The notes beneath the pieces are model-generated. The model was not told the origin of the DNA. It saw nothing but the letters and a program-made list of their open reading frames with translations, and did not search any database. The translations under genes and the position numbers were made by a program. Shown in pieces: positions 29,113 to 55,216 of a DNA stretch of 64,000 nt (position 1 is its first letter; the number at the start of each line of letters is the position of its first letter). The stretch lies in the sequence record DRR378314_402. One strand, given 5' to 3'.

Positions 29113-29144
29113 AAAAAAAGCTACCAATTATTGGTAGCTTTTTT
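29113..29144. terminator. Bidirectional intrinsic terminator
   Basis: AAAAAAAGCTACCAA-TTA-TTGGTAGCTTTTTT between convergent NUDIX and TonB receptor genes. Confidence 0.88.
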
Positions 29145-29173: not shown

Positions 29174-32017
29174 TTAGAACGAGTAACGCACGCCCAATGC
29201 AAATGTGCGTGAGTAAATAGCGTTACTAAAGTTGAACAGATTATCGTTTCCTTCGCCGTAATAGCTCTGGTAAACGTCATCAAGAATATTAGTTGCATCA
29301 AATGTAACTACAAAATCATCGGTAACGTCGTAGCTAAATTGGAAATCTAAACTTTGTTCTGGACGATTCCAAAATTGTAATGGGTTAGCAAATATAGCTG
29401 CTTCATTGCCCGTGTAGAACTCTGAACGCCATACATAGGATAAACGCATGTCGAACGAGTCACGCTCGTAAATACCGACAATGCTGTATGATTCATCTGA
29501 AACACCAGCCATGTTCGAGTCAATATAATTAGAGATATTACCTTCTTCATCATAATCCGGGGTATCTTGTGACGAATCAAGCAAAGTGAAGCTGGCCTGT
29601 ACGCCTAACCCGTCGAGCATAGAGGGTAAGTTTTCAGGGAAATAAACAGCCCCTAATTCAAAGCCAGACAACTCGCCATTAGACGCATTTACAGGTGCAC
29701 TTAAAACATAAGGACGGGTTACACCATCATTACCTTCACGAACAACGGTTTTACGGCCAGGAACTACAAGCCCCTCTATTTCCCGCTTAAAGTAAGCACC
29801 ATAAATTGAACTGGAATCTGCAAAATACCACTCTAATGATAAATCGTAGTTTTTCGATTCGGTCGGTTCAAGATCTGGATTACCGCCGGTACCTTCACCA
29901 TAAGTAGCACCTTCGGTGAGCGGGTCAGTCCAGTACTGCAGTGCGTTTAAGTCAGCAAAGGCAGGCATACGTAGAGTTTCGGTATAAGCAACACGACCAA
30001 CAACATCGTCAGTAATATTCCAGTTTAACATTAAACTAGGCAGTATTTTGCTCGCCTCAGCTTTAGCTGAACTTGACTCAAACACATTAGTATTTGTGCC
30101 CGTTTCAGCTGTAAACGCCATATCTTGTTTATATTTAACGTAACGGACGCCAACTTCACCACTGATATTCTCTGTTAAGAAGAAATTTGTCGTAGCGTAT
30201 AACGCATAAGATTCTTCTTGAATATCAAAGGTTTTATAGACATCTTCGGCTTCGAGCCCATAAATATCGCGTATTACACTGGCATTCTCAAGTAAGTAGC
30301 CGCCATCCGAAGTAATAAAGCTGTCGAATACATCGGCACGCCCATCGAGGTAGTCATCAACTTGGTACACTACGCCCGAACCATCGCCCGATGCACCACC
30401 GGCTTCCAGTTGTTCAATTAAACTGGCTACCGATGTATTTGCAATTCCACTTTCTTGAGTACGAGTAAAGGCTTCAGCTGTACGGTCTTCATAACGCCCA
30501 CCAAACGTCACTTTATTAATGTAGGCATTACCAACTAAATACTCGGCATCAAAGGTAAAGGCTAAAGAGTCACCCCGGTTACCGTCGCCGTTATCATAGA
30601 GAGTGCCCGCGTTCCAGTTCTCAACCGCCGCCATATCGGCTTCGTTTACAGCAGTATTCGGGTCATCCCAAAATGAGATGCCAGGCATGCCATCATTATC
30701 ATTGAAATCAACATCCAGGCCTGGCGCTACACGGTCAAAACGCATAGCAAAAAAGTCACTTTCATACTCACTTTCCTGGTACACAATTTCAGAGTTAATA
30801 GTCAAGTAATCGTTGGGTAGCCACTCGGCACCTAAGGCATATAGGTAACTATCCGTTTTTTCTGCGTTAGAGTCACCACTTTGAAAACCACCCGCACCAA
30901 TCGCTTGCTTTTCTTTGACTACGTTAGTGCCATCAAAAACGACTGGCGCATCAATAGTGCCATTACCGTTTTCAAAAGTGTTTGAAAACCATAAAGCATT
31001 TTGAGAGTTATTTTCATACCCGGTATAAAAACCTTCCGCTGTAATCTCTAGTGTCTCATCAAGTGCCCATTGTAATGAAACAGAAGCTGCCGGACGTTTT
31101 CTTAGACCTGTAAAAGAAGTACCAAATATGGCATCACGGGCTAGTAAATACTCTGTCGGTACACCATTAACATCGAGCGTTGACCCCGGTGCTGTTGGCA
31201 ATCCGCTTTCTCGGCCACCCTGCCAAATCAGATTATCTTGTGAATCTCTATTGGGAATACGTGAGTAAGGCGAATAACCTGTTGCTGGTTGATCGGTAAA
31301 AAATGGAAATGCTGCGCCTGCAGTAATAGTGTCATCGCGGTAATGAGTTTCTGCGTAAGACACATTAAGCAGTGCCCCGAACTCGCCTGCACCATCAATC
31401 TCCCAGCGATCACTGACCAGTGCACTGATATTGGGATCGATTTCATCCGGTTGATCTGAATAAATACCTCGGGCCGCTAAAACAACCTTTCCGTCATCGA
31501 AGTCGAATGGGCGATGAGTTTTTATGTCAATTGAACCTGCAATACCACGTTCAACGTGCGCCGCTGAACGGGTTTTATAAACGGTAACACCCGATAGTAA
31601 ACTGGCAGGAATATCTTGTAGTGAGACGTCTCGACCCGCACCGGTAAAAATATTACGGCCGTTCACTGTCGTGTGCACATCAGTTAAGCCGCGGATTGAC
31701 ACAGTGCTAACTTCGCCCGCACCACGCCCTGTAGTTTGCACACCGGTTACACGCTGCAATGCCTCAACTACGTTGTTATCAGGGAATTTACCGATATCTT
31801 CAGCAATAATTGCATCGACAATTTGCACACTGCCGCGCTTTTCAGCTAATGCCTGATTCAAACTGCCACGTATGCCTGATACCTGAATTACTTCCATAGC
31901 ATCAGTGGATTCTTCTTGTTGCGCCGCATTTTCGTCTTCAGCTTGTTGCTGGGCTAAAGCCATTCCTGGCATTAAAGCCAGCATAATTGACGTTGCTAGT
32001 AATTTTTTCTTAAACAT
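29174..32017 (-). CDS. TonB-dependent receptor (glycan uptake type)
   Basis: Signal peptide; EVIQVSGIRGSL TonB box region; AEDIGKFPD.N..EALQRVTGV plug; GNPDLEP; terminal YSF. Confidence 0.94.
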   Translation of the reverse strand: MFKKKLLATSIMLALMPGMALAQQQAEDENAAQQEESTDAMEVIQVSGIRGSLNQALAEKRGSVQIVDAIIAEDIGKFPDNNVVEALQRVTGVQTTGRGAGEVSTVSIRGLTDVHTTVNGRNIFTGAGRDVSLQDIPASLLSGVTVYKTRSAAHVERGIAGSIDIKTHRPFDFDDGKVVLAARGIYSDQPDEIDPNISALVSDRWEIDGAGEFGALLNVSYAETHYRDDTITAGAAFPFFTDQPATGYSPYSRIPNRDSQDNLIWQGGRESGLPTAPGSTLDVNGVPTEYLLARDAIFGTSFTGLRKRPAASVSLQWALDETLEITAEGFYTGYENNSQNALWFSNTFENGNGTIDAPVVFDGTNVVKEKQAIGAGGFQSGDSNAEKTDSYLYALGAEWLPNDYLTINSEIVYQESEYESDFFAMRFDRVAPGLDVDFNDNDGMPGISFWDDPNTAVNEADMAAVENWNAGTLYDNGDGNRGDSLAFTFDAEYLVGNAYINKVTFGGRYEDRTAEAFTRTQESGIANTSVASLIEQLEAGGASGDGSGVVYQVDDYLDGRADVFDSFITSDGGYLLENASVIRDIYGLEAEDVYKTFDIQEESYALYATTNFFLTENISGEVGVRYVKYKQDMAFTAETGTNTNVFESSSAKAEASKILPSLMLNWNITDDVVGRVAYTETLRMPAFADLNALQYWTDPLTEGATYGEGTGGNPDLEPTESKNYDLSLEWYFADSSSIYGAYFKREIEGLVVPGRKTVVREGNDGVTRPYVLSAPVNASNGELSGFELGAVYFPENLPSMLDGLGVQASFTLLDSSQDTPDYDEEGNISNYIDSNMAGVSDESYSIVGIYERDSFDMRLSYVWRSEFYTGNEAAIFANPLQFWNRPEQSLDFQFSYDVTDDFVVTFDATNILDDVYQSYYGEGNDNLFNFSNAIYSRTFALGVRYSF

Positions 32018-32124
32018 GAAAATTTCCCTTCCTATCTTGCCGCTAACTTTTTTTGTTTTATTGATAGTGGCGTTTATTATTCGAATAAAACCCGAAGGTA
32101 ACCTTACTGCTATAAGTTATTGTT

Positions 32125-33894
32125 CTACTGCACTTGTCTTATAAAAAAATGCTGACATAAGGTGTCATTAGCGGGAGCCTGGTTAATGGACATCCCCTCC
32201 TTAAGTCCGCAGCTTGCTAAATCGAGCGTTAAACCAGAGTGACGTGAAATAACTTCCATAGCGCCGCTGCTATGAAGTTGTAGTTTCCACTGACCAGCAT
32301 CACTCGCACACTCACCTGTGGTGACAGTTGCACCGGCGGCTAGTGAGTTATTTTCAATAGCCAGACACTTTTCGTTTGCTGTATTAACCAGATTTACAAA
32401 GCCGTGTTCGGCGTTGCGAATATGCCAGTGTTGCGAAGCCTCATTCATCCAATTCTGTTGTACTAATGTGTTGTTTTTCAGGCTGGCAACTTTGCCGCTT
32501 TGACGACTCTGCATTACGACCGGCTCATTCGTGCTTAACTGCCACTGGCCCTGCAATGTCTCGTCCGATTCAAGGTTGGTGAAGGACAAGTAGCCATTGT
32601 CGTCGGTGCTGACTTGCCATTTCTGGCAACTTTTATTTTCCCAGGCACTATTATCAGTGCCGCATTTGGCTGCTGTCAGAAACTCACCTTCAGCATTAGC
32701 CAGACGAAACTCACCGTGACCAACTGGGTCAATAACCCACTGGTTCTCGTTGGTGCATTCAGCTGTCGAATCAGCATCAGCCAAACATTGGTTATCTGCA
32801 GCATTACGAATAACAAAAGAGGTGCCTTGTGGAGTCACCTTGAATGGACCGTCTTCGCCTGAAGGTACTTTTATGGGTTCTCCTGCCGATACAGGCTCGC
32901 CAAAGTTCGGGGTTCCATCGTCGTTCCAGGTAAATGGTTGTGCCCGCAATGAGCGAGTCGCGCTGCACCCATCCGTTTCTTTGCTGTTGCCGTGGTATAT
33001 GATCCAGTCTTCGGTACCGTCAGGAGAAGAAAAGAAGCCGTTATGTCCGGGACCATACACACCATTGCCGCGTTCAAAAACGGGTTCTGGGTTTTTCTCC
33101 CAATGGTCTGGATTCAGAGGGTCGCTCCCGGTTAGTTCGATAAGCCCCAACTTATAGTCCGGCGTGTCGCAATAACTGGCGGAGTAAATAACAAAGGTTC
33201 TGCCGTCTTTCTGTAAGGTTTCGGCTCCTTCAGTTACTGGGCGACCAGAGCGCTCCCAGTCGTATTCCGGGCGGGTTAATACCTTGCGCTCGCCGGTTAT
33301 GGTCCACGGGTTTTCCATTTCAGCAATCCAGTTCAACTGAGCTTCGTCTTCCTGGCCGGCGTTTACCCATTCGGACCACAGTAAGTACAGTTTGTCGTCG
33401 TACTGTAGATAGTTTCCGTCAATGTTCCAGCTGTCAGGCATAGGTGAGCCTTTAAGCGTGTAAGGACCCATGGGATCATCACCGGCACTTTCGAGTACCG
33501 TTAAGTGTTGTCCGCCAAGATCTTCCTGACGTCCAGAAGTAAACATCATGTACCAACGGTAACCGTCGGGACCCTCTAACCGATGAAATTCGTACGCCCA
33601 AAAGTTACAGCAACGTTCAGCGCTTGTTTCTGACCAAAGGTAAACCGGCTCTGCGTCGGCCAGACCCGCTAGAGTAGGGGACTTACGCATAACAAGCTGC
33701 GAGGTCCAGGTGGTCGTTGTCAGGTAATAGTTACCATCAAAGTACTCCAGCCAGGGGTCTGCGCCGTTTTCGTAAATTGGGTTTGTAAAAGTGTCAGATG
33801 CACTTTCTTCGGCGTAAGTGCCAAAAGCTGGCAGCAGGAAACCTGCGATGACCAATGCTTTTAACTTCAATGATGAAAACTTACCTAAAGCCAT
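32125..33894 (-). CDS. Exported GH43 arabinofuranosidase-type enzyme with C-terminal ricin-B/CBM13-like domains
   Basis: GADPW, WAYE, IDG, TEG, YSAS, GPGHN; C-terminal Cys-containing QxW repeats. Confidence 0.88.
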   Translation of the reverse strand: MALGKFSSLKLKALVIAGFLLPAFGTYAEESASDTFTNPIYENGADPWLEYFDGNYYLTTTTWTSQLVMRKSPTLAGLADAEPVYLWSETSAERCCNFWAYEFHRLEGPDGYRWYMMFTSGRQEDLGGQHLTVLESAGDDPMGPYTLKGSPMPDSWNIDGNYLQYDDKLYLLWSEWVNAGQEDEAQLNWIAEMENPWTITGERKVLTRPEYDWERSGRPVTEGAETLQKDGRTFVIYSASYCDTPDYKLGLIELTGSDPLNPDHWEKNPEPVFERGNGVYGPGHNGFFSSPDGTEDWIIYHGNSKETDGCSATRSLRAQPFTWNDDGTPNFGEPVSAGEPIKVPSGEDGPFKVTPQGTSFVIRNAADNQCLADADSTAECTNENQWVIDPVGHGEFRLANAEGEFLTAAKCGTDNSAWENKSCQKWQVSTDDNGYLSFTNLESDETLQGQWQLSTNEPVVMQSRQSGKVASLKNNTLVQQNWMNEASQHWHIRNAEHGFVNLVNTANEKCLAIENNSLAAGATVTTGECASDAGQWKLQLHSSGAMEVISRHSGLTLDLASCGLKEGMSINQAPANDTLCQHFFIRQVQ

Positions 33895-33943
33895 ATTCTC
33901 GTCTGCCTTATTCTTATTCGTTTATTAACACTCGGCTAATGAG

Positions 33944-33961
33944 GTTGACGTTCACGTTAAC
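33944..33961. promoter_or_regulatory. 18-bp palindrome, LiuR-like site 1
   Basis: GTTGACGTTCACGTTAAC. Confidence 0.6.
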
Positions 33962-33968
33962 TGTATTT

Positions 33969-33983
33969 GTATTACTATATTAC
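33969..33983. promoter_or_regulatory. Locus-specific operator (FadR/DgoR-type candidate)
   Basis: Reverse complement GTAATATAGTAATAC is 14/15 identical to 51883-51897; lies just downstream of a -10. Confidence 0.65.
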
Positions 33984-33988
33984 GGTTG

Positions 33989-34017
33989 AGTGTATGACCA
34001 GTATTTAACCGTTGCAA
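33989..34017 (-). promoter_or_regulatory. Sigma70 promoter for the GH43-ricin/TonB receptor operon
   Basis: Minus strand TTGCAA-N17-TACACT. Confidence 0.6.
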
Positions 34018-34038
34018 CCCTAATGTTAAAAAAAATCA

Positions 34039-34056
34039 GTTGACGTTTACGTTAAC
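34039..34056. promoter_or_regulatory. 18-bp palindrome, LiuR-like site 2
   Basis: GTTGACGTTTACGTTAAC inside a longer AAAAAATCA...TGATTTTTT inverted repeat. Confidence 0.65.
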
Positions 34057-34144
34057 TGATTTTTTCAGAGCAAAAATAAGGGAAGCTTTTTCAGAGTTGA
34101 TTAACTCCTCAAAACGCTTCCCTGTATAGGATGTCAGGCTGATT

Positions 34145-35179
34145 TTAGTCTTTTTTTATGAGCTCACTTTTGTAGTTTTCAAGTACCGACTTATCGATTT
34201 CTGGCCACCCATCCGACCAGTTAACCGGGGCTATTTTTAGCTTTTGCAATCCATTATCGGCGGCTTCATAAGCATGAAAAACTAAATAATCAGTGTCGCC
34301 AAAATTATAAATACTGTTGTGACCAACGCCGTACCATTCGTCATTACCCTTCAGCACGATAGAGCCACCACCTTTCGCCATATCGACACCGTCTTTATCC
34401 AGGTATGGGCCTGTTACATCTTTTGAACGACCAACGGCCATATGGTAGGTGCTATCTGCTCCCCGGCAGCATTTTCCATAGGAAACGAATAAGTAGTAGT
34501 AATCGTTATGCTTGAAAATAAAGGGCGCTTCAATTTCAGCAGGTCCGGCTTCAGCGTCAGGTGTAAACGCGGGTCGGTCGAGTTTAGCCAGGGTATACCA
34601 CTCTTCGGGCTGGGCAATCTCGGTCAGGTTATCTTTCATTTTTACCAGCTTCATACCAGCCCAGAAAGAACCAAAACTCATCCAGGGCGTACCGTCGTCA
34701 TCAATAATGATGTTCGGATCAATCGCATTCCAGAGGTCACGGTTAGGTACCGACTGAACGACAATGCCTTTGTCTTCCCATTCGTACTCAGAAGAGTCCT
34801 GGTCTAAAGTTTTATTCACTGTCACGCCAATAGCAGAAGTATTTTCGCCAAATTGTGAAACAGAATAATACAGGTAGTACTGATCATTGTGGTGAAAAAC
34901 ATCCGGAGCCCATAAGTGACCACCAAATTCTGGTGCAACTTCTTTAGCCCACTCGGGTTCGTCGGCAAAAACGCGTCCTTCATGTTGCCAGTTTTCCATA
35001 TCGTCTGAGCTATAAAACGTAATACCAGGGCCGGTGGAAAAGAGGTAATAGGTATCCCCTTCTTTAGCCATGACCGGATCGTGAATACTCACTTGTTCTG
35101 CATTGACGAAGGAACTCAGGCTGATAGAAGCTGAGATGGCCAGTGCGCTAAGCCACTTAACTGAACTGTTTTTAGGCAT
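34145..35179 (-). CDS. GH43 endo-1,5-alpha-L-arabinanase, exported
   Basis: Signal peptide; IHDP, LWAPD, WNAIDP, FGSFW, IEAP, GKCC, VGHN match the Arb43A/AbnA-type arabinanase pattern. Confidence 0.9.
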   Translation of the reverse strand: MPKNSSVKWLSALAISASISLSSFVNAEQVSIHDPVMAKEGDTYYLFSTGPGITFYSSDDMENWQHEGRVFADEPEWAKEVAPEFGGHLWAPDVFHHNDQYYLYYSVSQFGENTSAIGVTVNKTLDQDSSEYEWEDKGIVVQSVPNRDLWNAIDPNIIIDDDGTPWMSFGSFWAGMKLVKMKDNLTEIAQPEEWYTLAKLDRPAFTPDAEAGPAEIEAPFIFKHNDYYYLFVSYGKCCRGADSTYHMAVGRSKDVTGPYLDKDGVDMAKGGGSIVLKGNDEWYGVGHNSIYNFGDTDYLVFHAYEAADNGLQKLKIAPVNWSDGWPEIDKSVLENYKSELIKKD

Positions 35180-35227
35180 AGGTGGAACCCCTTATTTATC
35201 TATGTACGCTTTAATTATAAGAAAATT

Positions 35228-35245
35228 ATTTACGTTAACGTAAAC
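35228..35245. promoter_or_regulatory. 18-bp palindrome, LiuR-like site 3
   Basis: A-TTTACGTTAACGTAAA-C; perfect 16-bp palindrome in the divergent promoter region, 24 bp before a TTGACA. Confidence 0.7.
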
Positions 35246-35284
35246 TGAATTACCTACTATCAGGTATCTTGACACCCACTTATA

Positions 35285-35300
35285 AGTAATACAATATGAC
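35285..35300. promoter_or_regulatory. Locus-specific operator (FadR/DgoR-type candidate)
   Basis: AGTAATACAATATGAC is 14/16 identical to 51765-51780 and overlaps the -10 region after TTGACA (35269). Confidence 0.65.
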
Positions 35301-35352
35301 CAATCAAAAAATTCGATAACAAATTTATAATGATGTGCCGGACGGGGGATGT

Positions 35353-36729
35353 GTGAAAACACAAAAATTAACAACGCTGGAGAAGGTTGGTTTTGGCTCT
35401 GGGGATATGGCTGTAAACGTCGTCATATCCTCCATGATGCTCATTATAACTTTCTTCTACACCGATATTTTCGGTCTAAAACCTGAAGATGTCGGGCTAC
35501 TTTTACTTTTAGTCCGGTTTGTAGATGCTTTCACCGACCCGTTGATGGGCGTTATTACGGACAAAGTGGATACTCGCTGGGGACGTTATCGTCCTTATTT
35601 TCTATTCTTTTCCGTTCCCTTTGGCATTTCCGTTTTCCTGACATTTACCACGCCTGATTTAGACTACGCCAGCAAGTTAGTGTGGGCATATTCCACTTAT
35701 ATCTTCATGACTATCATGACGACGGCGGTCACTATCCCTTACATCTCGCTTATTGGGGTGCTGACCAACGACCCTAAAGACCGCTTGTCTGCCAACGGTT
35801 ATCGTCTGTTTTTTGCGAAAATAGCGGCGTTTCTGGTCACTATTATTGTACCTATTTTGGCGGCGCGTTGGGGCGAAGGGCAGGAAGCTCAGGGCTATCA
35901 GTTTGCTATGGGGCTAATGGCTTTAATGGCAACAATACTCTTCCTGTTTTGCTTCTTTACAACAACAGAGCGGGTACGTCATGAAATTAACCCGAAATCG
36001 TTGTGGCAGCAGTTTAAAGTCCTGTTAAAAAATGACCAATGGCAAGTTCTGGTGGGCGCCTGTGTTCTGGGAACTATAGGTTATGTCATTCGTGGTTCTG
36101 TCGCGGCTTACTATGCTAAGTATTATCTCGGGGGAGGAAGTACTCTGTTATCAATGTTCCTGGCGACAGGGGTGATAGCCGCATTACTCGCTATGATAGC
36201 GTCTACCTGGATCACTAAGCGCTATTGCAAAGTAAAGTTGTTTCGCTATAGCCAGGTAGCCGTTGGTGTATTAAGTGTCATGTTGTTCTTTTTCGTTAAC
36301 CCTAACGACGTTGTCATGGCTTTTGTCTTGTATTTTCTTGTGTCTTTCGTGGTTGATTTGCATGCTCCCGTCTTCTGGTCAGCTATATCAGAGTCTGTCG
36401 ATTACGGTCACCATGAAACCGGTGAACGGGTTTCGGGTCTTGCTTTTGGTGGTATTTCTTTTGCGCAAAAAGCGGGAATGGGGCTAGCTGGATTTATTGT
36501 CGGGTCTCTTCTGACCTTTTTCGGTTACGTTCCTGACCAGGAACAGTCAGACTTTGCGCTGTTTGGCATTGCCCTGATGCTTAGTGTTGTTCCGGGCTTA
36601 TTCCATACGTTAACAGGCATGCTGATGTTTAAATATAAAATTACAGACAGTTACTTCAAGACCATCAAAGCCGATGGGTTAGAAGGCGAAGAAGTGGTTA
36701 TTCCAACGTTAAAATCTGAAAAGAAATAA
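35353..36729 (+). CDS. GPH family (glycoside-pentoside-hexuronide) cation symporter
   Basis: EKVGFGSGD; FYTDIFGL; DAFTDPLMG..D...TRWGRYRPY; about 12 TMs; GTG start assumed. Confidence 0.92.
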   Translation: MKTQKLTTLEKVGFGSGDMAVNVVISSMMLIITFFYTDIFGLKPEDVGLLLLLVRFVDAFTDPLMGVITDKVDTRWGRYRPYFLFFSVPFGISVFLTFTTPDLDYASKLVWAYSTYIFMTIMTTAVTIPYISLIGVLTNDPKDRLSANGYRLFFAKIAAFLVTIIVPILAARWGEGQEAQGYQFAMGLMALMATILFLFCFFTTTERVRHEINPKSLWQQFKVLLKNDQWQVLVGACVLGTIGYVIRGSVAAYYAKYYLGGGSTLLSMFLATGVIAALLAMIASTWITKRYCKVKLFRYSQVAVGVLSVMLFFFVNPNDVVMAFVLYFLVSFVVDLHAPVFWSAISESVDYGHHETGERVSGLAFGGISFAQKAGMGLAGFIVGSLLTFFGYVPDQEQSDFALFGIALMLSVVPGLFHTLTGMLMFKYKITDSYFKTIKADGLEGEEVVIPTLKSEKK

Positions 36730-36756
36730 AGTATTAACAATAGCGATAGAGGGCAT

Positions 36757-37704: not shown

Positions 37705-37729
37705 CAACGAAAACGAGTAGTGTCCCCTT

Positions 37730-37755
37730 GACCCCGCCCGAGCGGGGTCTTTTTT
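37730..37755 (+). terminator. Intrinsic terminator inside the apparent operon
   Basis: GACCCCGC-CCGA-GCGGGGTC-TTTTTT immediately before the GGAG RBS of the next gene. Confidence 0.75.
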
Positions 37756-37765
37756 GGAGTTGACT

Positions 37766-40126: not shown

Positions 40127-40136
40127 CCACCTTAAC

Positions 40137-43962: not shown

Positions 43963-43966
43963 TGAT

Positions 43967-45478: not shown

Positions 45479-45504
45479 GATTTTCTCCCAACGACAAAGG
45501 CGGC

Positions 45505-46437: not shown

Positions 46438-46509
46438 GTTTTTCGCCTTTATCTTATTGTTTACTTATTATTTGGGGCAAATTCATGTTGCTGTGTTTTC
46501 AGCCGCCAC

Positions 46510-47550
46510 TTAGCTGCTGGAAAACTTATAGAGACTGCTTTGTTGATATTTCTGCCCCGGGGACAGAATGACCGAAGGGAATGAGGACTGATTTACCGCA
46601 TCGGGGTGAATATGAGGCTCGAGACAAAGTCCTCCGTATTGTGGTAACGGTTTACCAGAAGCTCCGGGTATTGAAGAGTCCAGGAAGTTGCCACTGTAAA
46701 ATTGAACGCCTGGCTCTGTGCTGAACAGCTCCATTGTACGTCCGGAAACCGGATCTCGTAATTTAGCCATTTTTTGCAAGGTACGGCTTTTCTCGTCTCG
46801 CGCTACCCAAAAATGGTCATAGCCCTGTTCGGTTTTCGCAATATCCTGCCCTATGGTTTTGGCCCGTTGGAAATCCATAGGTGAATCTGCTGTACCAATT
46901 AAGCGACCAGTAGGAATGAGTCCTTCGTCAACTTCTACGTAACGGTCTGCATGAATAGTGAGTTCATGATCGAGAATGGAATCCTTGCCTGCCAGATTAA
47001 AATACATATGACTGGTCATATTCACCGGACATGTTTTATCTGTGGTGGCCTGGTAGTCGATAAGCAACTCGTTCTCTTCATTCAGTGAATAAGTTACCGC
47101 GGCTTTAAAGTTACCAGGGTAGCCCTGGTCACCATCTGCACTAAAAATATGGAATGTGACACTAACGTTATCAGCTGCTTCCCTGCTCTCTGTATCCCAA
47201 AAACGGAAAGATAACCCTTCCGGGCCGCCGTGCAGCTGATTTTCGCCTTCATTACTGACCAGATGAATGTTCTGATCATCGACTGAAAACTGACTCTGGC
47301 CTATACGGTTAGCGCAACGGCCAACAATAACGCCAAAGTAGTAAGGGTTTTTCAACCACAGAGTCGGGTCCTGATAATTAAGGGTAACTTCCTGAACGCC
47401 TTGGTTTCCGGGTACTTTCAATGAACGGACGCTGGCGCCAAAGTTAGCCAAAGTAACTTGCATACCCTGGCTGTTATTTAACGTAAAAAAGCGCAGAGGC
47501 TGGCTAAAGCCAGCGTGCACTTCTTTACTTTCTGTAATGAACAAAGCCAT
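46510..47550 (-). CDS. galM: Aldose 1-epimerase (mutarotase)
   Basis: GRCANRI, LHGG, DQGYPG, NMTSHMYFNL, YDH, QFYSGN, LCLE. Confidence 0.9.
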   Translation of the reverse strand: MALFITESKEVHAGFSQPLRFFTLNNSQGMQVTLANFGASVRSLKVPGNQGVQEVTLNYQDPTLWLKNPYYFGVIVGRCANRIGQSQFSVDDQNIHLVSNEGENQLHGGPEGLSFRFWDTESREAADNVSVTFHIFSADGDQGYPGNFKAAVTYSLNEENELLIDYQATTDKTCPVNMTSHMYFNLAGKDSILDHELTIHADRYVEVDEGLIPTGRLIGTADSPMDFQRAKTIGQDIAKTEQGYDHFWVARDEKSRTLQKMAKLRDPVSGRTMELFSTEPGVQFYSGNFLDSSIPGASGKPLPQYGGLCLEPHIHPDAVNQSSFPSVILSPGQKYQQSSLYKFSSS

Positions 47551-47553
47551 GGC

Positions 47554-49155
47554 TTAGTTCTCAACAGCCTTGTTAGTGCGTTCGCCATTAATCCAACGGC
47601 TGATGCCCCACGGATTTTCGTTTTTCAGAGCGTCCGGAAGTAAGTCATGCGGATAGTTCTGGAAGCAAATAGGGCGTACAAAACGGTCAATTGCTTTCGT
47701 ACCGACAGAAGTAAAGCGGCTGTCTGTTGATGCCGGAGAAGGACCACCGTGCATCATTGCGTCACAAACTTCTACGCCAGTAGGGAAGTTATTCACAACC
47801 ATACGACCCACTTTATCCTGTAACAGGCTTAGCAGTTCAGAGTAGTTCTTCAGTTCGCTTTCTGTAGCCTGCAGTGTGCCGGTTAGCTGGCCGCCTAAAT
47901 GACTGACAACTGTATTCAGTTCTTCAGCATTTTTACATTTAATGACTAAAGAGCTGGGGCCGAAGTTTTCTGCCTGAAGTTCTGGGTTTTCGACGAAGTC
48001 AGATGCTGAAACCGTAAATAATTCAGCCTGTCCACAGAAACCTTTTTCACCTTCTTTTACTGGCTGGCCTGTTGCAACTGATTTAACACCTGGCTGGCCT
48101 GACAGCTTTTGACGACCCGACTGATAAGTTTCAGCAATGCCTTGATTCAGCATAACGCCAGCGTTTACATCAGCTAATGCTTTGGCAGTAGAATCAATAA
48201 AGATATCCAGCTCATCGCCTTCAATACCTAATACCAAGCCTGGGTTTACACAGAACTGACCAACGCCCAGTGTTAGCGAACCGACAAAGCCTTCAGCAAT
48301 GCTTTGTGCTGAGTTTTTTAATGCTTCTGGTAAGACAACAATGGGGTTAATGCTGCCCATTTCGGCAAATACCGGAATTGGGTTTTTACGTTCGCTGGCC
48401 AGTTTGTATAGCGCCATACCGCCAGAGTGAGAGCCGGTAAAGCCAACGGCTTTAACTTGTTCTGCTTTGACTAATGCCGCGCCGACATCTTTGCCAGGGC
48501 CCGTTACGTACGAGAACGTACCTTTCGGCATTTGGCATTTGTCAGCCGCTTTTTGTACTGCCTGCGCAACTAATTCTGCTGAGCCAGCGTGAGAGTTGTG
48601 GCCTTTAACAATAACCGGACAACCTGCCGCTAATGCGGACGCTGTGTCACCGCCGGCAGTAGAGAAGGCCATTGGAAAGTTAGAAGCACCAAACACAGCG
48701 ACTGGACCAAGCGCTTGTTTGTAAAAGCGAATGTCAGCGCGTGGCATAGGCTGACGATCCGGCATTGCTTTATCAATACGCGCATCCAGGAATTCGCCAC
48801 TTTGAATGGTGTTAGCGAAGAGTTTTAACTGGTTGCAAGTACGACCGCGTTCGCCTTCAACACGAGCCTGCGGGTAGCCGGTTTCCGCTTTTAAACGATC
48901 TAATAATTCATCGCCTAAAGCCATAATTTCATCGGCACAAGTTTCTAAAAACTTGCCGCGTTGTTTCAGCGTGGTTGCTGCATAGGCAGGAGCTGCTTTT
49001 GCCGCCGCTTCAACCGCTGCGTCAACCTGGCTGCCGTCAGCATGGTTTATTGTTGGCTCCAGTGCTTCACCTGTAGCTGGATTGACCGCCTGGTAAGAGG
49101 CACCTTTGCCTGCTTGCCATTCGCCTTGAATAAGTTGTTTACCTGTAATAGTCAT
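47554..49155 (-). CDS. NADP-dependent alpha-ketoglutaric semialdehyde dehydrogenase
   Basis: GERGRT..QL; VFGASNFP.AFSTAGGDTASALAAGCP; FTGS; EMGSINP; GQFC.NPG. Confidence 0.87.
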   Translation of the reverse strand: MTITGKQLIQGEWQAGKGASYQAVNPATGEALEPTINHADGSQVDAAVEAAAKAAPAYAATTLKQRGKFLETCADEIMALGDELLDRLKAETGYPQARVEGERGRTCNQLKLFANTIQSGEFLDARIDKAMPDRQPMPRADIRFYKQALGPVAVFGASNFPMAFSTAGGDTASALAAGCPVIVKGHNSHAGSAELVAQAVQKAADKCQMPKGTFSYVTGPGKDVGAALVKAEQVKAVGFTGSHSGGMALYKLASERKNPIPVFAEMGSINPIVVLPEALKNSAQSIAEGFVGSLTLGVGQFCVNPGLVLGIEGDELDIFIDSTAKALADVNAGVMLNQGIAETYQSGRQKLSGQPGVKSVATGQPVKEGEKGFCGQAELFTVSASDFVENPELQAENFGPSSLVIKCKNAEELNTVVSHLGGQLTGTLQATESELKNYSELLSLLQDKVGRMVVNNFPTGVEVCDAMMHGGPSPASTDSRFTSVGTKAIDRFVRPICFQNYPHDLLPDALKNENPWGISRWINGERTNKAVEN

Positions 49156-49213
49156 AATATATCCTGTTACTTAAAGGTACTCTGCCGCGCGGCGCGCGAC
49201 CCGAAATATCCTG

Positions 49214-49996
49214 TTACACCCACCCGGCATCGACAATAAAGTCTTGAGCAGTACACATGCTGCTATCGTCTGACGCTAAAAATAACGCCATTGCTGCGAT
49301 GCTTTCGGGCATTAGTGGTGCATTAATGCATTGGTTTTTAGCAATGTCTTTTTTGGTTTCTTCTGTAACCCACAAAGATAATTGACGTTCAGTCATAACC
49401 CATCCCGGGGTTAGTGTATTGACCCGGATATTATCCTCGCCCATATCACGGGCCAGGCCTCGGGTCAGGCCCAGTACGGCCGACTTTGCACTGGTATACC
49501 CAGGCATATTTCCCTGGCTTTCGTGCCAGCTCATTGAGCCAAAGTTAATGATGGAACCGCCACCCAGTTCTTTCATTTGCGAGTACACTGCCTGTGCTGC
49601 AAAGAACTGCGGACGCAGATTAATATGCATGCGTTCATCCCAGTATTCCGGGGTCACATCACGGAAGTCGTGACGGGTATCACTGGCAGCGTTGTTTATC
49701 AGTACGCCAATGGCACCAAGTTCACTTTTGACTTGCTCAACAACTTTGCGTAAGTGCTCAATATCAACCAGGTTACACGGGTAAAAATGTGCCTTACCTG
49801 AGCCTGAATTTTCATTAACTTTCTCGACCAGCGCTTTTGATTCATCTTCCAGAATGTCGACGAAAGCCACCTGGCTTCCCTGCGCGACAAACGCTTCTAC
49901 TAATGCCGCGCCAATACCAGAGCCGCCGCCGGTGATAAATATCGTACGGCCTCTGAGGCTAGGATATTGATTCGTTAATGTCTTTTGTTCTGCCAT
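49214..49996 (-). CDS. SDR pentose 1-dehydrogenase (XylB-like; putative L-arabinose dehydrogenase)
   Basis: YPSL.G; ITGGGSGIG; NNAA.D.RH; YTSAK; PGWVMTERQ; ATG 49996 after AGGTG. Confidence 0.8.
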   Translation of the reverse strand: MAEQKTLTNQYPSLRGRTIFITGGGSGIGAALVEAFVAQGSQVAFVDILEDESKALVEKVNENSGSGKAHFYPCNLVDIEHLRKVVEQVKSELGAIGVLINNAASDTRHDFRDVTPEYWDERMHINLRPQFFAAQAVYSQMKELGGGSIINFGSMSWHESQGNMPGYTSAKSAVLGLTRGLARDMGEDNIRVNTLTPGWVMTERQLSLWVTEETKKDIAKNQCINAPLMPESIAAMALFLASDDSSMCTAQDFIVDAGWV

Positions 49997-50007
49997 TGAA
50001 CACCTGT

Positions 50008-51747
50008 TTAATGTGAATGTTTTGGTACGGCGGCACCGCGGCAACCCACCAGAAAGTCCAGGTCACAGCCTTCATCGGCTTGTAAAACCCGTTCCCGGTA
50101 AATTTCTAAATAACCGCCAGATTTTGCGATTACCTGAGTTGCTTTGAGTTTCTCCAGACGTGCTTTCAATTCTTCGTCACTGACCTCCAACTGAAGAACT
50201 CCGGCATCCGCATCCAATTGGATGTAATCGCCTTCCTCGACCGCAGCCAGAGGACCAAGTTCCATTGCCTCGGGAGCAACGTGCAGCACGACCGTACCAA
50301 ATGCTGTGCCACTCATGCGGGCATCAGATATTCGAACCATGTCTTTTACCCCTTTTTTCAGAACTTTAGGAGGTAAACCCATGTTTCCGACTTCTGCCAT
50401 TCCCGGGTAACCTTTCGGCCCACAGTTTTTGAGCACCATGACGCTGTTTTCATCAATATCCAAATCTGGGTCGGCAATACGTGCTTTATAATCTTCGAAG
50501 CTCTCAAAGACCACGGCTTTACCGCGATGCTTCATTAGATGAGGGCTTGCCGCCGACGGCTTAAGTACCGCGCCACGTGGCGCCAGATTACCGCGTAATA
50601 CGCAGATTCCGCCATGTTTCAGTAAAGGCTCGTTAAAGGTACGGATGACATCATCGTTATAGCAAGGCGCTTCCTCTACGTTTTTCCAGATAGATTTGCC
50701 ATTAACTGTTAAAGCGTCTTTGGTCAGTATGCCTTCCTCGCCTAAACGGCGCAGCACAACCGGTAGTCCGCCGGAGTAGTAGAAGTCTTCCATCAGGTAG
50801 CGACCCGAGGGCTGCAAGTTAACAATAGTCGGAACTTCTTTGCCTTCCAGCCAGTCATCCAAATCCAGATCGACGCCCATACGGCCAGCGATGGCTTTAA
50901 GGTGAATCACCGCATTGGTTGAACCGCCGATTGCAGCATTGGTTTTAATCGCATTTAAGAACGCGTCGCGGGTTAACACTTTAGACAGTTTCAGGTCTTC
51001 ATGAACCATTTCCACAGCGCGCATACCCGACATATGAGCTAATACGTATCTCCGCGAATCCACCGCTGGAATAGCGGCGTTATGTGGCAGGCTCACGCCC
51101 AGCGATTCTGCCATAGAAGCCATAGTAGAAGCTGTGCCCATGGTATTACAGGTACCGGCCGAACGAGACATGCTGGCTTCGGCATCCATAAATTCTTGTA
51201 GAGAAATATTGCCGGCTTTGTATTCTTCGTGCATTTTCCATACAAGGGTGCCTGAGCCTACATCTTTACCATGGTGCTTACCGTTAAGCATCGGCCCGCC
51301 GCTGACTACAATCGTTGGCAGGTCGCAACTCGCTGCACCCATTAACAAGGCTGGCGTGGTCTTATCGCAGCCGACCATTAGAACGACACCGTCAATAGGG
51401 TTGCCGCGAATCGCTTCTTCAGTGTCCATGGCCGCCAGATTACGGGTCAACATAGCCGTTGGTCTTAGGTTTGACTCACCGTTAGAAAACACGGGAAATT
51501 CCACCGGAATCCCACCCGCTTCGCGAATGCCGTTCTTAACACGGTCGGCTAAGTCGCGAAAATGAGCGTTACAAGGGGTCAGTTCCGACCATGTGTTACA
51601 AATTCCAATAACCGGCTTGTTGTCAAAGTGATGATCAGGAATTCCCTGGTTTTTCATCCAGCTACGATACATAAAACCGTTTTTGTCTGCGGTCCCAAAC
51701 CACTGGGCGGAGCGCAGTTTAGATTTATTTTTGTCGTCGTTGTTCAA
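50008..51747 (-). CDS. IlvD/Edd family L-arabinonate dehydratase
   Basis: LRS..WFG..DKNGFMYRSWMKNQG; ELTPCN; GCDKTTP; GTCNTMGTASTM; DARMSGT; TTG start after AGGTG. Confidence 0.9.
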   Translation of the reverse strand: MNNDDKNKSKLRSAQWFGTADKNGFMYRSWMKNQGIPDHHFDNKPVIGICNTWSELTPCNAHFRDLADRVKNGIREAGGIPVEFPVFSNGESNLRPTAMLTRNLAAMDTEEAIRGNPIDGVVLMVGCDKTTPALLMGAASCDLPTIVVSGGPMLNGKHHGKDVGSGTLVWKMHEEYKAGNISLQEFMDAEASMSRSAGTCNTMGTASTMASMAESLGVSLPHNAAIPAVDSRRYVLAHMSGMRAVEMVHEDLKLSKVLTRDAFLNAIKTNAAIGGSTNAVIHLKAIAGRMGVDLDLDDWLEGKEVPTIVNLQPSGRYLMEDFYYSGGLPVVLRRLGEEGILTKDALTVNGKSIWKNVEEAPCYNDDVIRTFNEPLLKHGGICVLRGNLAPRGAVLKPSAASPHLMKHRGKAVVFESFEDYKARIADPDLDIDENSVMVLKNCGPKGYPGMAEVGNMGLPPKVLKKGVKDMVRISDARMSGTAFGTVVLHVAPEAMELGPLAAVEEGDYIQLDADAGVLQLEVSDEELKARLEKLKATQVIAKSGGYLEIYRERVLQADEGCDLDFLVGCRGAAVPKHSH

Positions 51748-51764
51748 GGCTACACCTGTTAATT

Positions 51765-51780
51765 AGTAATACAATACTAC
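51765..51780. promoter_or_regulatory. Locus-specific operator (FadR/DgoR-type candidate)
   Basis: AGTAATACAATACTAC upstream of the dehydratase, downstream of a minus-strand TTGACA (51807-51812). Confidence 0.65.
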
Positions 51781-51882
51781 GTTATGGTCGCGATTCTTCC
51801 TTCGAATGTCAATCGCTGACTCAATTCTGTACAGCATTAACCAAAATTTATAGCGGGCTCGATCATTGCTCAAGCCTAAAAG

Positions 51883-51897
51883 GTAATATAGTATTAC
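51883..51897. promoter_or_regulatory. Locus-specific operator (FadR/DgoR-type candidate)
   Basis: GTAATA-TAG-TATTAC perfect 6-bp inverted repeat upstream of the AraD1-like gene. Confidence 0.65.
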
Positions 51898-51940
51898 TTT
51901 TTAAATTTTGTAGTATAAATTCATAGCAGGAGCCTATCTA

Positions 51941-52936
51941 ATGCGTCTGATTCAATACGTCACAGAGGCTGGCAAGCAACAGGCCGGTGTCGTTAACGGT
52001 GAGCATATTCACCCTTTAAAGGAAGTTGTCAGTGTTTATGAGCTTGCGGAAAAAGCTCTGCAGGAGAAAACCGGTTTAGAGTCGTTAATAGAAAAACTGC
52101 AAAGCGATGAGCAAATTTCTTACGTTGAATTAATTAACGAGAACCGCTTACTCAGCCCGTTTCATCATGAAGACCCTGCGCATCTGTTCGTAACTGGCAC
52201 AGGTCTGACGCATTTAGGCAGTGCTGACACGCGCGCAAATATGCATGCACAAGGCTCGGACAGTTCAAACGCCGAACTGACGGACTCTATGAAAATGTTT
52301 AAAGCCGGAGTACAAAACGGCAAGCCGAAATCTGGTGAGCAGGGCGCTCAGCCGGAATGGTTCTACAAAGGTGATGGCAGTATCGTGGTTGCGCCAGGCC
52401 AGGCCCTGACTTCTCCGCATTTTGCTCTGGACGCTGGCGAAGAACCAGAAATTGCAGGCTTATATATAAATGATAGAGACGGCCAACCGCACCGCATTGG
52501 TTTTGCATTGGGTAACGAATTTTCTGACCATATTACGGAAAAAGAAAACTACCTGTTATTAGCCCACTCTAAATTGCGCCAATGCTCAATTGGACCTGAA
52601 ATTCTCATCGGCGATTTACCGGCGAATATCAAAGGCTCTTCGCGCATTATCCGCGACAACGAAGTATTGTGGGAAAAAGAGTTTTTGAGTGGTGAAGAGA
52701 ATATGTCTCACACTATTGAGAACCTGGAGAACCACCACTTTAAGTATCCTATTTTCCGCCAACCGGGTGACGCGCATATACACTTTTATGGCACAGCAAC
52801 GTTAAGTTTCGGTGACGGAATTAGCACTCAGGCGGGTGATGTCTTTGAAATTGCGGCGGATACCTTTGGTAAACCGTTGCGCAATAAACTGCAGATAGAA
52901 AAACAAAGCCCGATTCAAAAGGTTACCAAGCTGTAA
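51941..52936 (+). CDS. AraD1/GguC family FAH-fold protein (putative 2-keto-3-deoxy-L-arabinonate dehydratase)
   Basis: MRLIQ; DPAH..VTGTGLTHLGSA; QPEWFYKGDG; EEPE; GNEFSDH; LAHSKLR; SGEENMSH. Confidence 0.85.
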   Translation: MRLIQYVTEAGKQQAGVVNGEHIHPLKEVVSVYELAEKALQEKTGLESLIEKLQSDEQISYVELINENRLLSPFHHEDPAHLFVTGTGLTHLGSADTRANMHAQGSDSSNAELTDSMKMFKAGVQNGKPKSGEQGAQPEWFYKGDGSIVVAPGQALTSPHFALDAGEEPEIAGLYINDRDGQPHRIGFALGNEFSDHITEKENYLLLAHSKLRQCSIGPEILIGDLPANIKGSSRIIRDNEVLWEKEFLSGEENMSHTIENLENHHFKYPIFRQPGDAHIHFYGTATLSFGDGISTQAGDVFEIAADTFGKPLRNKLQIEKQSPIQKVTKL

Positions 52937-52938
52937 CC

Positions 52939-53670
52939 TTAAACCGGTGTTTTGTGCAGTTCCGCCAGTGTGTGCTCCAGAGCATGCCTGGCGTTGACTA
53001 AAAGTGTCTGCATTTCTTCCCGTGCGACTACCGGATTCTGCTCTTTAATGGCCATGAACACTGCCTTGTGACCGGGTAGTGAATCGACATACTCTTCCGC
53101 TATAGCACTGCTTAAGCGAAATGAATTTTCCAGAGCCGTTTCAATGGTTACGCCTAACGAAGCCATAAACTCGTTATTAGTGGCTTCCAGTAAGGCTAAG
53201 TGGAACTCTAAATCGCTTTTGTATACAGCGTCAGTACCAATTTGAGCTTCTTCCATTGCCTTGTATGCTTCAGTTAATGCCGCTAACTGGTCATCAGTGC
53301 GGTGCATTGCCGCCAGACTGGCCGCATTAGGCTCGATAATTTCCCGCATTTCATACAGCGACATGTAAAACTTAGTGTCCGGGTTGCTGCTAAAACACCA
53401 GCGCAAAACTTCCGCGTCAAACATGTTCCAGTTTTTACGGGGGCGGACTCTGGTGCCCAGTTTTGGACGGGATTCGATTAATCCTTTCGCGGTTAACAGC
53501 TTAAAGGCTTCACGCAGTGCTGTGCGCGATACGCCAAGCTCTTCACCAATGTCATTTTCATTCGGGATATACTGACCAGGTAAATAGACGCCACCCACGA
53601 TTCGAGAACCCAGTTCCTGAGCAACCCATGAGTGGATACTTTGTGGTCTGTTTCGGGTTGCGCTTTTCAT
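52939..53670 (-). CDS. FadR/GntR family regulator (DgoR-like)
   Basis: LG.RIV.G...PG..IP.E; GVSRTALREA; GTRVRPR..WN.FD..VL.W; FCD domain (D..FH). Confidence 0.9.
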   Translation of the reverse strand: MKSATRNRPQSIHSWVAQELGSRIVGGVYLPGQYIPNENDIGEELGVSRTALREAFKLLTAKGLIESRPKLGTRVRPRKNWNMFDAEVLRWCFSSNPDTKFYMSLYEMREIIEPNAASLAAMHRTDDQLAALTEAYKAMEEAQIGTDAVYKSDLEFHLALLEATNNEFMASLGVTIETALENSFRLSSAIAEEYVDSLPGHKAVFMAIKEQNPVVAREEMQTLLVNARHALEHTLAELHKTPV

Positions 53671-55116: not shown

Positions 55117-55216
55117 GCCACTTACTTGGCAGCGTTAAAGTTCTGTAAAAATAGATGAGGCTTCATATATTTCGGTACACTTTAAAAAGCGTTGGTGGTT
55201 AGGGAACAATAAGCGG

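Follow-up and report, generated by a model that had tools for sequence, protein, structure and literature searches.

The window analysed here is a stretch of 64,000 nucleotides (nt) from sequence record DRR378314_402, given as one strand, and the subject of this report is a locus at positions 29174-53670 that appears to encode the breakdown and uptake of arabinan together with an oxidative, non-phosphorylative route from L-arabinose to 2-oxoglutarate. Eighteen back-to-back open reading frames (ORFs) occupy this interval exactly, with short gaps or small overlaps between them, and all 18 frames are intact (Table 1). Pfam matches were obtained for 17 of the 18 proteins; the exception was the AraD1-family protein (51941-52936), with none at E<=1e-3. 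NCBIfam models for the TonB-dependent receptor, the GPH symporter, YjfF, the mutarotase, the IlvD/EDD-family dehydratase, and AraD1 were matched above their curated cut-offs. A first-pass annotation, made by a model from the sequence alone, had described 18 contiguous genes of named families at this position, and the ORF list, Pfam, and NCBIfam showed that description to be correct gene for gene. One of its glycoside hydrolases (GH), labelled GH127/146, could be refined to the 5OPJ type by comparison with solved structures.

Of the genomes compared, G001 (2.8 Mb) is the nearest, with nt identities of 94-95% over the locus and 91-93% over its flanks. In a collection of named genomes, the closest copies of the large 5OPJ-type hydrolase, at 96-97% amino acid (aa) identity, were those of an Idiomarina sp. 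metagenome-assembled genome and of Idiomarina rhizosphaerae M1R2S28; the next best full-length match, at 58%, was to Woeseiaceae, Microbulbifer, and Cellvibrio. Because the nearest copies are those of Idiomarina, we assign the host by sequence to this genus, in the I. loihiensis-rhizosphaerae group, which the first-pass annotation had raised as a supposition. That annotation had also regarded the genus as poor in sugar genes, in agreement with published descriptions of Idiomarina as a genus that depends on amino acids and has a strongly reduced set of carbohydrate genes (PMC11514770, PMC13272253; papers are cited by PubMed Central number). A search of titles and abstracts returned no paper linking Idiomarina to arabinan; PMC11630799 ascribes arabinan modules to Chromohalobacter and Halomonas.

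Table 1. Features of the locus and its edges, in window positions; cut-offs are the curated NCBIfam values
Feature	Position	Strand	Basis
14-pair hairpin between convergent Nudix and receptor genes, left edge of locus	29114..29144	.	
TonB-dependent outer-membrane receptor, 947 aa, signal peptide	29174..32017	-	Plug and barrel; TIGR01782 (TonB-Xanth-Caul) 557 bits (cut-off 310), aligned to last residue
23.7 kb segment absent from two sister species	29249..52937	.	L038 (G025), L039 (G008)
Exported GH43 with three C-terminal ricin-B (beta-trefoil) repeats	32125..33894	-	Pfam; best solved relatives 3akf (188 bits), 9nxj/9nxg
Motif 2, 17-nt palindrome TTnACGTTnACGTnAAC, three copies	33945-33961, 34040-34056, 35229-35245	.	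In front of hydrolase/uptake genes only
Candidate operator, motif 1, upstream of GH43-ricin and receptor genes	33969..33983	.	1 mismatch; kept in L017
Exported endo-1,5-alpha-L-arabinanase, AbnA-like GH43 (predicted)	34145..35179	-	NF053747 AbnA 306 bits (cut-off 480); signal peptide
Candidate operator, motif 1, between divergent arabinanase and symporter genes	35286..35300	.	1 mismatch; kept in L017 and L018
GPH cation symporter	35335..36729	+	MFS_2 362 bits; TIGR00792 356 bits (cut-off 231); cytoplasmic GH43 directly after
Cytoplasmic GH43 without signal peptide, exo-alpha-L-arabinofuranosidase-like	36757..37704	+	Family match from residue 5; 3k1u 446 bits, 5m8e 428, 9nxj 381, 3akf 352
Terminator-like hairpin between cytoplasmic GH43 and 5OPJ-type hydrolase genes	37730..37749	+	8-pair stem with 7 GC pairs, then T run
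Exported beta-L-arabinofuranosidase-like enzyme, 5OPJ type, 790 aa	37754..40126	+	GH127-type catalytic and middle domains, DUF4986, DUF6805; 5opj_A 810 bits
Exported GH43, exo-1,5-alpha-L-arabinofuranosidase-like	40137..41117	-	9nxj 364 bits, 3akf 330 bits; signal peptide
SMP-30/gluconolactonase-type lactonase, proposed L-arabinonolactonase	41110..42027	-	SGL 247 bits; no NCBIfam name; role inferred from context
YtfQ-YtfR-YtfT-YjfF (GafABCD-type) ABC importer, four contiguous genes	41984..46437	-	Two BPD_transp_2 permeases, double ABC ATPase, Peripla_BP_4; NCBIfam, YjfF 459 bits (cut-off 363)
Cytoplasmic aldose 1-epimerase (mutarotase)	46510..47550	-	Aldose_epim 281 bits; NF008277 (galactose-1-epimerase subfamily) 312 bits (cut-off 240)
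533-aa aldehyde dehydrogenase, proposed 2-oxoglutarate semialdehyde dehydrogenase	47554..49155	-	Aldedh; solved relatives 3v4c, 1eyy; role inferred
SDR-type aldose 1-dehydrogenase, proposed L-arabinose 1-dehydrogenase	49214..50044	-	XylB-type model 337 bits; 7wwx 321 bits, 4lvu, 9gwu
IlvD/EDD-family (N and C domains) sugar-acid dehydratase, proposed L-arabinonate dehydratase	50008..51747	-	NF004784 (IlvD subfamily) 948 bits (cut-off 539)
Two motif 1 sites between divergent dehydratase and AraD1 genes	51766-51780, 51883-51897	.	1 and 0 mismatches
AraD1/GguC-family FAH-fold protein, proposed 2-keto-3-deoxy-L-arabinonate dehydratase	51941..52936	+	NF040903 (AraD1) 528.5 bits (cut-off 340)
GntR/FCD-family regulator	52939..53670	-	GntR and FCD (Pfam, NCBIfam)

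Predicted degradation and uptake of arabinan

The three GH43 enzymes other than the AbnA-like endo-arabinanase had identical top six matches in the Protein Data Bank (PDB), including 3akf and 9nxg/9nxj. These structures are SaAraf43A (3AKF) and AtAbf43C (9NXG/9NXJ), GH43_26 exo-1,5-alpha-L-arabinofuranosidases that cut alpha-1,5 arabino-oligosaccharides and not arabinoxylan oligosaccharides (PMC12493170). All three predicted enzymes are most like exo-1,5-alpha-L-arabinofuranosidases; the one with ricin-B repeats is the most distant of them, and its specificity is therefore the least certain. The large hydrolase aligned with 5opj_A over residues 4-786 of its 790, followed by the beta-L-arabinofuranosidases 8k7x/8k7y and then by GH127 enzymes. 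We take 5OPJ to be the founding GH146 enzyme, BT0349, and the large hydrolase would then presumably belong to GH146. A fifth GH43 gene lies elsewhere in the chromosome as an open frame of 467-481 aa (G001:C2:166081-166947, G024:C1:320216-321082, G008:C1:88097-88963); it is present also in G008, which lacks the locus, and absent from G025 and G026.

Inspection of the N-termini found signal peptides in the receptor, three of the GH43s, the large hydrolase, and the sugar-binding protein, and none in the GH43 of 36757-37704, the mutarotase, or the catabolic enzymes. In the mechanism that we propose, a secreted endo-1,5-arabinanase would cut linear arabinan, and the TonB receptor would import arabino-oligosaccharides. 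Two or three exo-alpha-1,5-arabinofuranosidase-like GH43s would work in the periplasm alongside the beta-L-arabinofuranosidase-like enzyme to free L-arabinofuranose.

The best solved relative of the binding protein was 5ocp (425 bits), compared with 319 bits for YtfQ of E. coli (2vk2). The 5OCP structure represents GafA from Shewanella sp. ANA-3, a protein that binds L-arabinofuranose but does not bind D-galactose (PMC10191376). We propose that the importer, as a Gaf-type ATP-binding cassette (ABC) system, takes up L-arabinofuranose, and that the GPH symporter is an inner-membrane importer of short arabino-oligosaccharides, which the adjoining GH43 without signal peptide would split in the cytoplasm. 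The locus seems geared to alpha-1,5 arabinan in linear form and to the oligosaccharides of this polymer.

The predicted oxidative pathway and AraD1

Five catabolic enzymes are predicted downstream of uptake. Ring and anomer equilibration would be aided by the mutarotase, after which a short-chain dehydrogenase/reductase (SDR) would oxidise L-arabinose to the lactone and the lactonase would open it. The IlvD-type enzyme would dehydrate the L-arabinonate, AraD1, with a fumarylacetoacetate hydrolase (FAH) fold, would convert 2-keto-3-deoxy-L-arabinonate to 2-oxoglutarate semialdehyde, and the 533-aa aldehyde dehydrogenase would oxidise the semialdehyde to 2-oxoglutarate. The solved relatives of the SDR include sulfoquinovose 1-dehydrogenase (9gwu), and the lactonase has an SMP-30/gluconolactonase domain in Pfam. 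Another relative of the SDR, 7wwx, which we take to be an L-arabinose 1-dehydrogenase, was given no weight on that account. The dehydratase is 83% identical to its Microbulbifer copy. An atlas look-up of the aldehyde dehydrogenase returned generic names only; the enzyme holds the equivalent position in the Microbulbifer module (62-65% identity), and we assign it the semialdehyde dehydrogenase role because that position is conserved. All five steps from a pentose to 2-oxoglutarate therefore appear, in silico, to be encoded beside the arabinan hydrolases and two uptake systems, as had first been suggested.

The annotated starts of the SDR and lactonase genes are probably too far upstream, since they overlap their neighbours by 37 and 44 nt (the latter at 41984-42027) and the family matches begin only at residues 25-34 and 28, respectively. 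For the SDR, an internal methionine at residue 17 would abolish the overlap (49996-50044).

The genes araA, araB, and araD, already reported missing by the first-pass annotation, had no NCBIfam match among the 46 window proteins scanned (18 of the locus and 28 flanking). Likewise, PF02610 (isomerase), TIGR01234 (ribulokinase), and TIGR00760 (4-epimerase) were each found in none of the 4 nearest genomes, which are 98-99% complete and stand in for the host genome at approximately 91-95% nt identity to the window. The same searches were positive in control genomes.

Some family names would also fit a catabolic arm for D-xylose, D-galactose/D-fucose, or galactofuranose, with L-arabinose as a side substrate at most. 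Among named NCBIfam models, the SDR fits a D-xylose 1-dehydrogenase best (337 bits), the closest NCBIfam names for the transporter are those of the galactofuranose system, and the FAH dehydratases of the KdaD and XylX types act on the D-isomer. However, all six hydrolases point to L-arabinofuranosides, with no xylanase or galactanase found in the locus with Pfam, and the binding protein is nearer to GafA, which is specific for L-arabinofuranose (PMC10191376). The IlvD/EDD protein scored 830 bits with the L-arabinonate dehydratase model compared with 197 for the YjhG/YagF xylonate model, and neither a keto-deoxy-galactonate kinase nor an aldolase was found in the locus with Pfam and NCBIfam. 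We consider another sugar quite unlikely to be the main substrate and retain L-arabinose as the preferred one.

AraD1 would carry out the fourth step. A search of the PDB with the single AraD1 sequence returned nothing at E<=1e-5, and a profile of 30 family members matched only KdaD of Sulfolobus, with an E value of 2.4e-6. The metal ligands of KdaD are residues 143, 145, and 164, and its catalytic residues are Glu114 and Lys182 (PMC9795676). Glu143, Glu145, residue 164, Glu114, and Lys182 of KdaD align with E168, E170, E193, E139, and K211 of AraD1, and all five of the latter are invariant in 30/30 aligned family members. An AlphaFold2 model of AraD1 had a mean predicted local distance difference test (pLDDT) score of 86.4 and a predicted template modelling (pTM) score of 0.88. 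When this model was searched with Foldseek, KdaD took ranks 1-4 (E of approximately 1e-17, TM-scores of 0.67/0.77); 105 PDB entries matched at E<=0.001, and the best 30 of the 105 belonged to the FAH superfamily throughout. KdaD differs in being archaeal and acting on the D-isomer, and AraD1 exceeds it by approximately 40 residues, its model showing insertions of lower confidence near residues 95-125 and 200-210.

A bacterial FAH-superfamily protein, C785_RS13710 of Herbaspirillum huttiense, has the activity proposed for AraD1 and dehydrates L-2-keto-3-deoxypentonate (L-KDP) to 2-oxoglutarate semialdehyde (Watanabe et al.; PMC6336799). It sits in a different gene cluster, and AraD1 is likened to it by superfamily and proposed activity. 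In seven further gammaproteobacterial loci, AraD1 has an IlvD-type gene or gene fragment as a neighbour in 6/7 and a GntR gene in 5/7, and this gene context supports a dehydratase role. No enzyme of the DHDPS/NAL type was found in the locus with Pfam. From the modelled fold and aligned residues, we regard AraD1 as a well-supported candidate for a bacterial FAH-type L-KDP dehydratase, a candidate function for a little-studied family.

The keto-deoxy-pentonate might instead be cleaved to pyruvate and glycolate or glycolaldehyde, either by AraD1 acting as an FAH-type diketo-acid hydrolase or by an aldolase encoded elsewhere. FAH-superfamily hydrolases of exactly that role exist (PMC6336799), Foldseek also returned the hydrolases 8gsr and 6j57 at E values of 1e-12 to 1e-14, and the aldehyde dehydrogenase could oxidise glycolaldehyde. 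However, the dehydratase KdaD accounts for the four best fold matches and for the single match to the sequence profile, and its Glu/Lys dyad falls on invariant residues of AraD1. Furthermore, the single SDR resembles aldose 1-dehydrogenases, so that no 4-dehydrogenase remains, and Pfam shows no aldolase in the locus. Cleavage is very unlikely in our judgement, and dehydration by AraD1 is the reading followed below.

The name AraD1 was reportedly coined by Zhao and Binns in 2011 for GguC of Agrobacterium. The literature under "AraD1" mostly concerns a plant gene, a different subject, and a literature search on gguC found nothing relevant. In an Acinetobacter preprint (bioRxiv 10.1101/2025.03.16.643438), "AraD1" is a gene-cluster label and is not shown to belong to the AraD1 family.

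The closest counterparts compared were the arabinan/arabinose loci of Microbulbifer (L025 and L055 of Microbulbifer sp. MCCC 1A16149, L026, and L032 of M. hainanensis). In strain MCCC 1A16149, 17 of the 18 genes lie together in near-identical order, at 41-83% aa identity. The genes for lactonase, YjfF, YtfT, YtfR, YtfQ, mutarotase, aldehyde dehydrogenase, and SDR share order and orientation with the Idiomarina locus, and the arrangement of the IlvD, AraD1, and GntR genes is also the same. In contrast, no receptor homologue was found in the Microbulbifer stretches compared, the pair of symporter and cytoplasmic GH43 genes lies at the opposite end of the locus, and the candidate operators are not common to both. 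The Microbulbifer host, moreover, is a polysaccharide degrader with a genome of 4-5 Mb, and the locus is accessory there too.

More distant resemblances were also considered. The carbohydrate utilisation loci with TonB receptors (CUT loci) of Xanthomonas and Caulobacter, reportedly described by Blanvillain et al. in 2007, likewise group a TIGR01782 receptor with glycoside hydrolases, a transporter of the inner membrane, and a regulator; they serve another polymer, whereas the Idiomarina locus includes a full predicted catabolic pathway downstream. The non-phosphorylative AraABCDE pathway of Azospirillum brasilense (Watanabe et al., 2006, as cited in PMC6336799 and PMC9795676) is said to turn L-arabinose into 2-oxoglutarate by the same five reactions. 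The first enzyme of that pathway is not known to be an SDR, and its last, of 481 aa, belongs to a different subclass of aldehyde dehydrogenases. Its fourth enzyme is a Schiff-base dehydratase of the DHDPS/NAL type (PMC9795676), whereas the Idiomarina enzyme is predicted to be metal-dependent and FAH-fold. The GafABCD cluster of Shewanella sp. ANA-3 combines arabinanases and arabinofuranosidases, both secreted and periplasmic, with an arabinofuranosidase of the cytoplasm, secondary carriers, and the Gaf importer, but it is an araBAD-linked (Clade II) system (PMC10191376), and araBAD was not found in 4 Idiomarina relatives. In gammaproteobacteria, extended Gaf clusters encode arabinofuranosidases that are secreted, and some of these clusters carry the oxidative A. 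brasilense route to 2-oxoglutarate (PMC10191376).

The first-pass annotation had presented a self-contained module from polymer to the TCA cycle, notable as a niche expansion if the host were Idiomarina. The module is rare in that genus, as discussed below, but its kind is known, both from the 17/18 genes in Microbulbifer and from the clusters in PMC10191376. The locus thus belongs to a known kind of gene cluster, and the interest lies in its host and its record of gain and loss rather than in new biochemistry.

Candidate operators and the GntR/FCD regulator

Motif 1, an imperfect palindrome (GTAATA-N3-TATTAC), had 7 matches with no more than 2 mismatches in the 64 kb window, all inside the locus, and the four best copies lie in promoter regions of both arms (hydrolase/uptake and catabolic). 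These sites are probably where the GntR/FCD protein acts to control both arms. Motif 2 had 7 matches (both strands counted) compared with 0.5 expected, and 0/100 shuffles reached 7. Both motifs are kept in two other Idiomarina loci (L017 and L018). Motif 2 has no evident regulator in the locus. The region of the operator at 35286-35300 shares a 25-nt similarity with 51752-51776. A scan for promoter-like sequences performed no better than shuffles (15 found, 19.9 expected).

A deletion scar and the history of the locus

Among 28 genomes of Idiomarina species, two (G001 and G024) contained AraD1, so that the locus is indeed rare in the genus; the wider counts were 3/61 among relatives and 8/301 among family genomes, or 4/59 genera as sampled. 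It was also found in 16/58 Microbulbifer genomes, and the module is therefore common in that genus but not core. The closest AraD1 outside Idiomarina was that of Aliidiomarina soli (78-79% identity, compared with 61-63% for Microbulbifer), a hint that AraD1 may be more widespread, though patchily, in the Idiomarina family.

The right flank of the locus was recognisable by DNA in 6 of the 28 genus genomes, among them two without AraD1, G025 and G008. In each of the two, window position 29248 is joined to 52938 at the identical point, with 2 nt between. Both retain the whole GntR gene (243/243 residues aligned, 98%) as well as the final 75 nt of the receptor gene, encoding its C-terminal 25 residues, that is, the C-terminal strand with its aromatic end. 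A receptor tail next to an orphan regulator is sensibly read only as a deletion of 29249-52937. The rarity of AraD1 in Idiomarina and the identical 23.7 kb scar in two species are the new observations of this study.

Synonymous divergence (dS) from G001 and G024 was 0.08-0.42 for the island genes and 0.21-0.34 for the flanking genes. The ratio of nonsynonymous to synonymous divergence (dN/dS), with genes of gapped alignment skipped, was 0.011-0.146 for 15/18 genes against G001 and 0.005-0.163 for 12/18 against G024. By these ratios, the locus is under purifying selection.

The first-pass annotation had seen the locus as a niche expansion, and a recent horizontal gain by the lineage of the window, with the island-free relatives in the original state, would agree with several findings: AraD1 occurs in so few genus and family genomes, the gene order is common to the distant Microbulbifer, and the flank region is variable in other relatives, as in the more distant G026, which has another arrangement there and no island remnant. 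However, G025 and G008 keep an intact regulator gene and the end of the receptor gene, and the island has diverged at synonymous sites to the same degree as its flanks. No foreign sign is evident in GC content (0.44-0.49 inside the locus, 0.43-0.52 outside), no integrase or transposase was found among the 18 genes with Pfam and NCBIfam, no tRNA lies in the window, and there is no flanking direct repeat of at least 18 nt. Recent gain is therefore unlikely. The rarity behind the niche-expansion claim stands, but the scar in two sister species, together with equal dS for island and flanks, indicates that the locus is old in the subclade and is being lost rather than newly gained.

The patchy distribution and the gene order common to distant lineages (Idiomarina and Microbulbifer) are as expected of an acquired island, whereas composition, mobility genes, tRNA genes, and repeat borders give no such sign. 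Since the module is common to Microbulbifer and other gammaproteobacteria, it will at some time have passed from one lineage to another. Most plausibly, it entered the ancestor of the subclade or was exchanged, in one direction or the other, with Microbulbifer-like bacteria, long enough ago to take on host composition. Stepwise loss of carbohydrate use has been suggested for Idiomarina (PMC11514770), and vertical inheritance followed by deletion in some lineages would fit that suggestion.

The catabolic operon was found in 19 of 21 rows from public runs, representing 11 studies, among the matches listed. Four runs were compared over 33800-53700: two of DNA (X1, possibly the run from which the window derives, and X7, an unrelated marine run) and two RNA libraries of the X1 sample. 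A loose end at 52938 in both X1 and X7 is the same deletion junction as in G025 and G008. In X1, the short piece bearing the junction had a depth of approximately 239, compared with 11.3 for the 23.8 kb island contig, so the deleted allele co-occurs with the intact allele there and outnumbers it. One contig of X7 skips 445 nt inside the IlvD-type gene (51141-51587), with 22 letters on its shorter side, and may be a variant or an assembly artefact.

The same deleted allele in two species-level genomes and two unrelated metagenome runs raises the idea of a loss allele that spreads by homologous recombination across species borders. As a tentative and rather doubtful extension, the 23.7 kb deletion could be a presence/absence polymorphism segregating across the I. 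loihiensis-rhizosphaerae group, and the oxidative route could persist as the only sugar pathway that plugs directly, at 2-oxoglutarate, into a metabolism that is amino-acid-based and kinase-poor. If so, compatibility with resident metabolism, and not substrate availability alone, would decide which sugar pathways survive genome reduction.

A locus lost by sister species might also be a silent relic with no phenotype today. Such a view would agree with the scar, with the excess of junction over island depth in X1, and with descriptions of related species as using almost no sugars (PMC13272253). However, all 18 frames are intact with dN/dS of 0.005-0.16 in two species pairs, and the candidate operators are kept in L017 and L018. 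Contigs at least 99% identical to the locus on 26 and 10 of 30 bins in the two RNA libraries are a weak hint that it is transcribed, as they show neither strand nor level and DNA carry-over is uncontrolled; the 4 and 20 bins left uncovered carry no weight either way. We regard a silent relic as highly improbable.

Taken together, the probable explanation is that of a chromosomal, TonB-receptor-dependent arabinan/L-arabinose locus of Idiomarina, coupled to an oxidative, non-phosphorylative route to 2-oxoglutarate of the A. brasilense/Weimberg type, ancestral in the subclade and partly lost. The ancestor shared by a small Idiomarina subclade would already have had the module, which would then have been held by purifying selection in three lineages and removed elsewhere by one clean deletion. 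Several results detract from this explanation. Some of the best NCBIfam models scored below their curated cut-offs, namely AbnA (306<480), YtfT (395<535), YtfR (732<850), and YtfQ (416<510), as did the best named model for the SDR, the XylB-type D-xylose dehydrogenase (337<400), and the L-arabinonate dehydratase model for the IlvD/EDD protein (830<882). For the aldehyde dehydrogenase, the best named models (2,5-dioxovalerate dehydrogenase, 135<750, and GucD) reached 106-135 bits with cut-offs of 750-770. AraD1 had no match to the Pfam FAH domain (PF01557) at E<=1e-3 and is only about 20% identical to KdaD, an enzyme for the D-isomer. Motif 1 is modestly enriched (7 matches, 2.7 expected; 3/100 shuffles reach 7), and neither motif is conserved in the Microbulbifer loci. 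The genome-wide absence of araA, araB, and araD is taken from relatives, the RNA contigs are limited as stated above, and the lack of foreign composition, mobility genes, tRNA, and border repeats gives the module no mark of arrival from elsewhere.

The claim of complete arabinan utilisation can be upheld only in part. Arabinan hydrolases and two uptake systems are present, but a search of 5 related genomes for the GH51 C-terminal domain found none, and no debranching enzyme was identified. With three exo-acting GH43s that resemble enzymes limited to alpha-1,5 linkages, the removal of arabinan side chains is unaccounted for, and completeness exceeds the evidence.

Idiomarina serves as a textbook example of marine bacteria with small genomes that swapped sugars for peptides. 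That one subclade keeps a working-looking pathway for arabinan, a plant pectin, and that its sister species bear the exact scar of its loss, provides a dated and testable example of the stepwise loss of carbohydrate use. Strains with the island and strains with the scar form natural, isogenic-like pairs in which to gauge the value of the locus in rhizosphere, fermentation, and particle habitats. The locus also offers a compact, kinase-free gene set from a halophile for conversion of arabinan to 2-oxoglutarate; knowledge of the pathway as such is unchanged by these results.

The DNA just right of the locus contains a second variable spot, at window 55117-57112. A 614-aa ORF there (55217-57061) has no NCBIfam match; G025 and G008 jump from 55116 to 57113, and G026 is without 55117-58332. 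Between its regulator gene and ybaK, G001 has additional DNA that is not in the window, in pieces of approximately 0.8 kb and 2.2 kb (C2:427097-427901 and C2:428460-430614), at window points of about 53750 and 54310.

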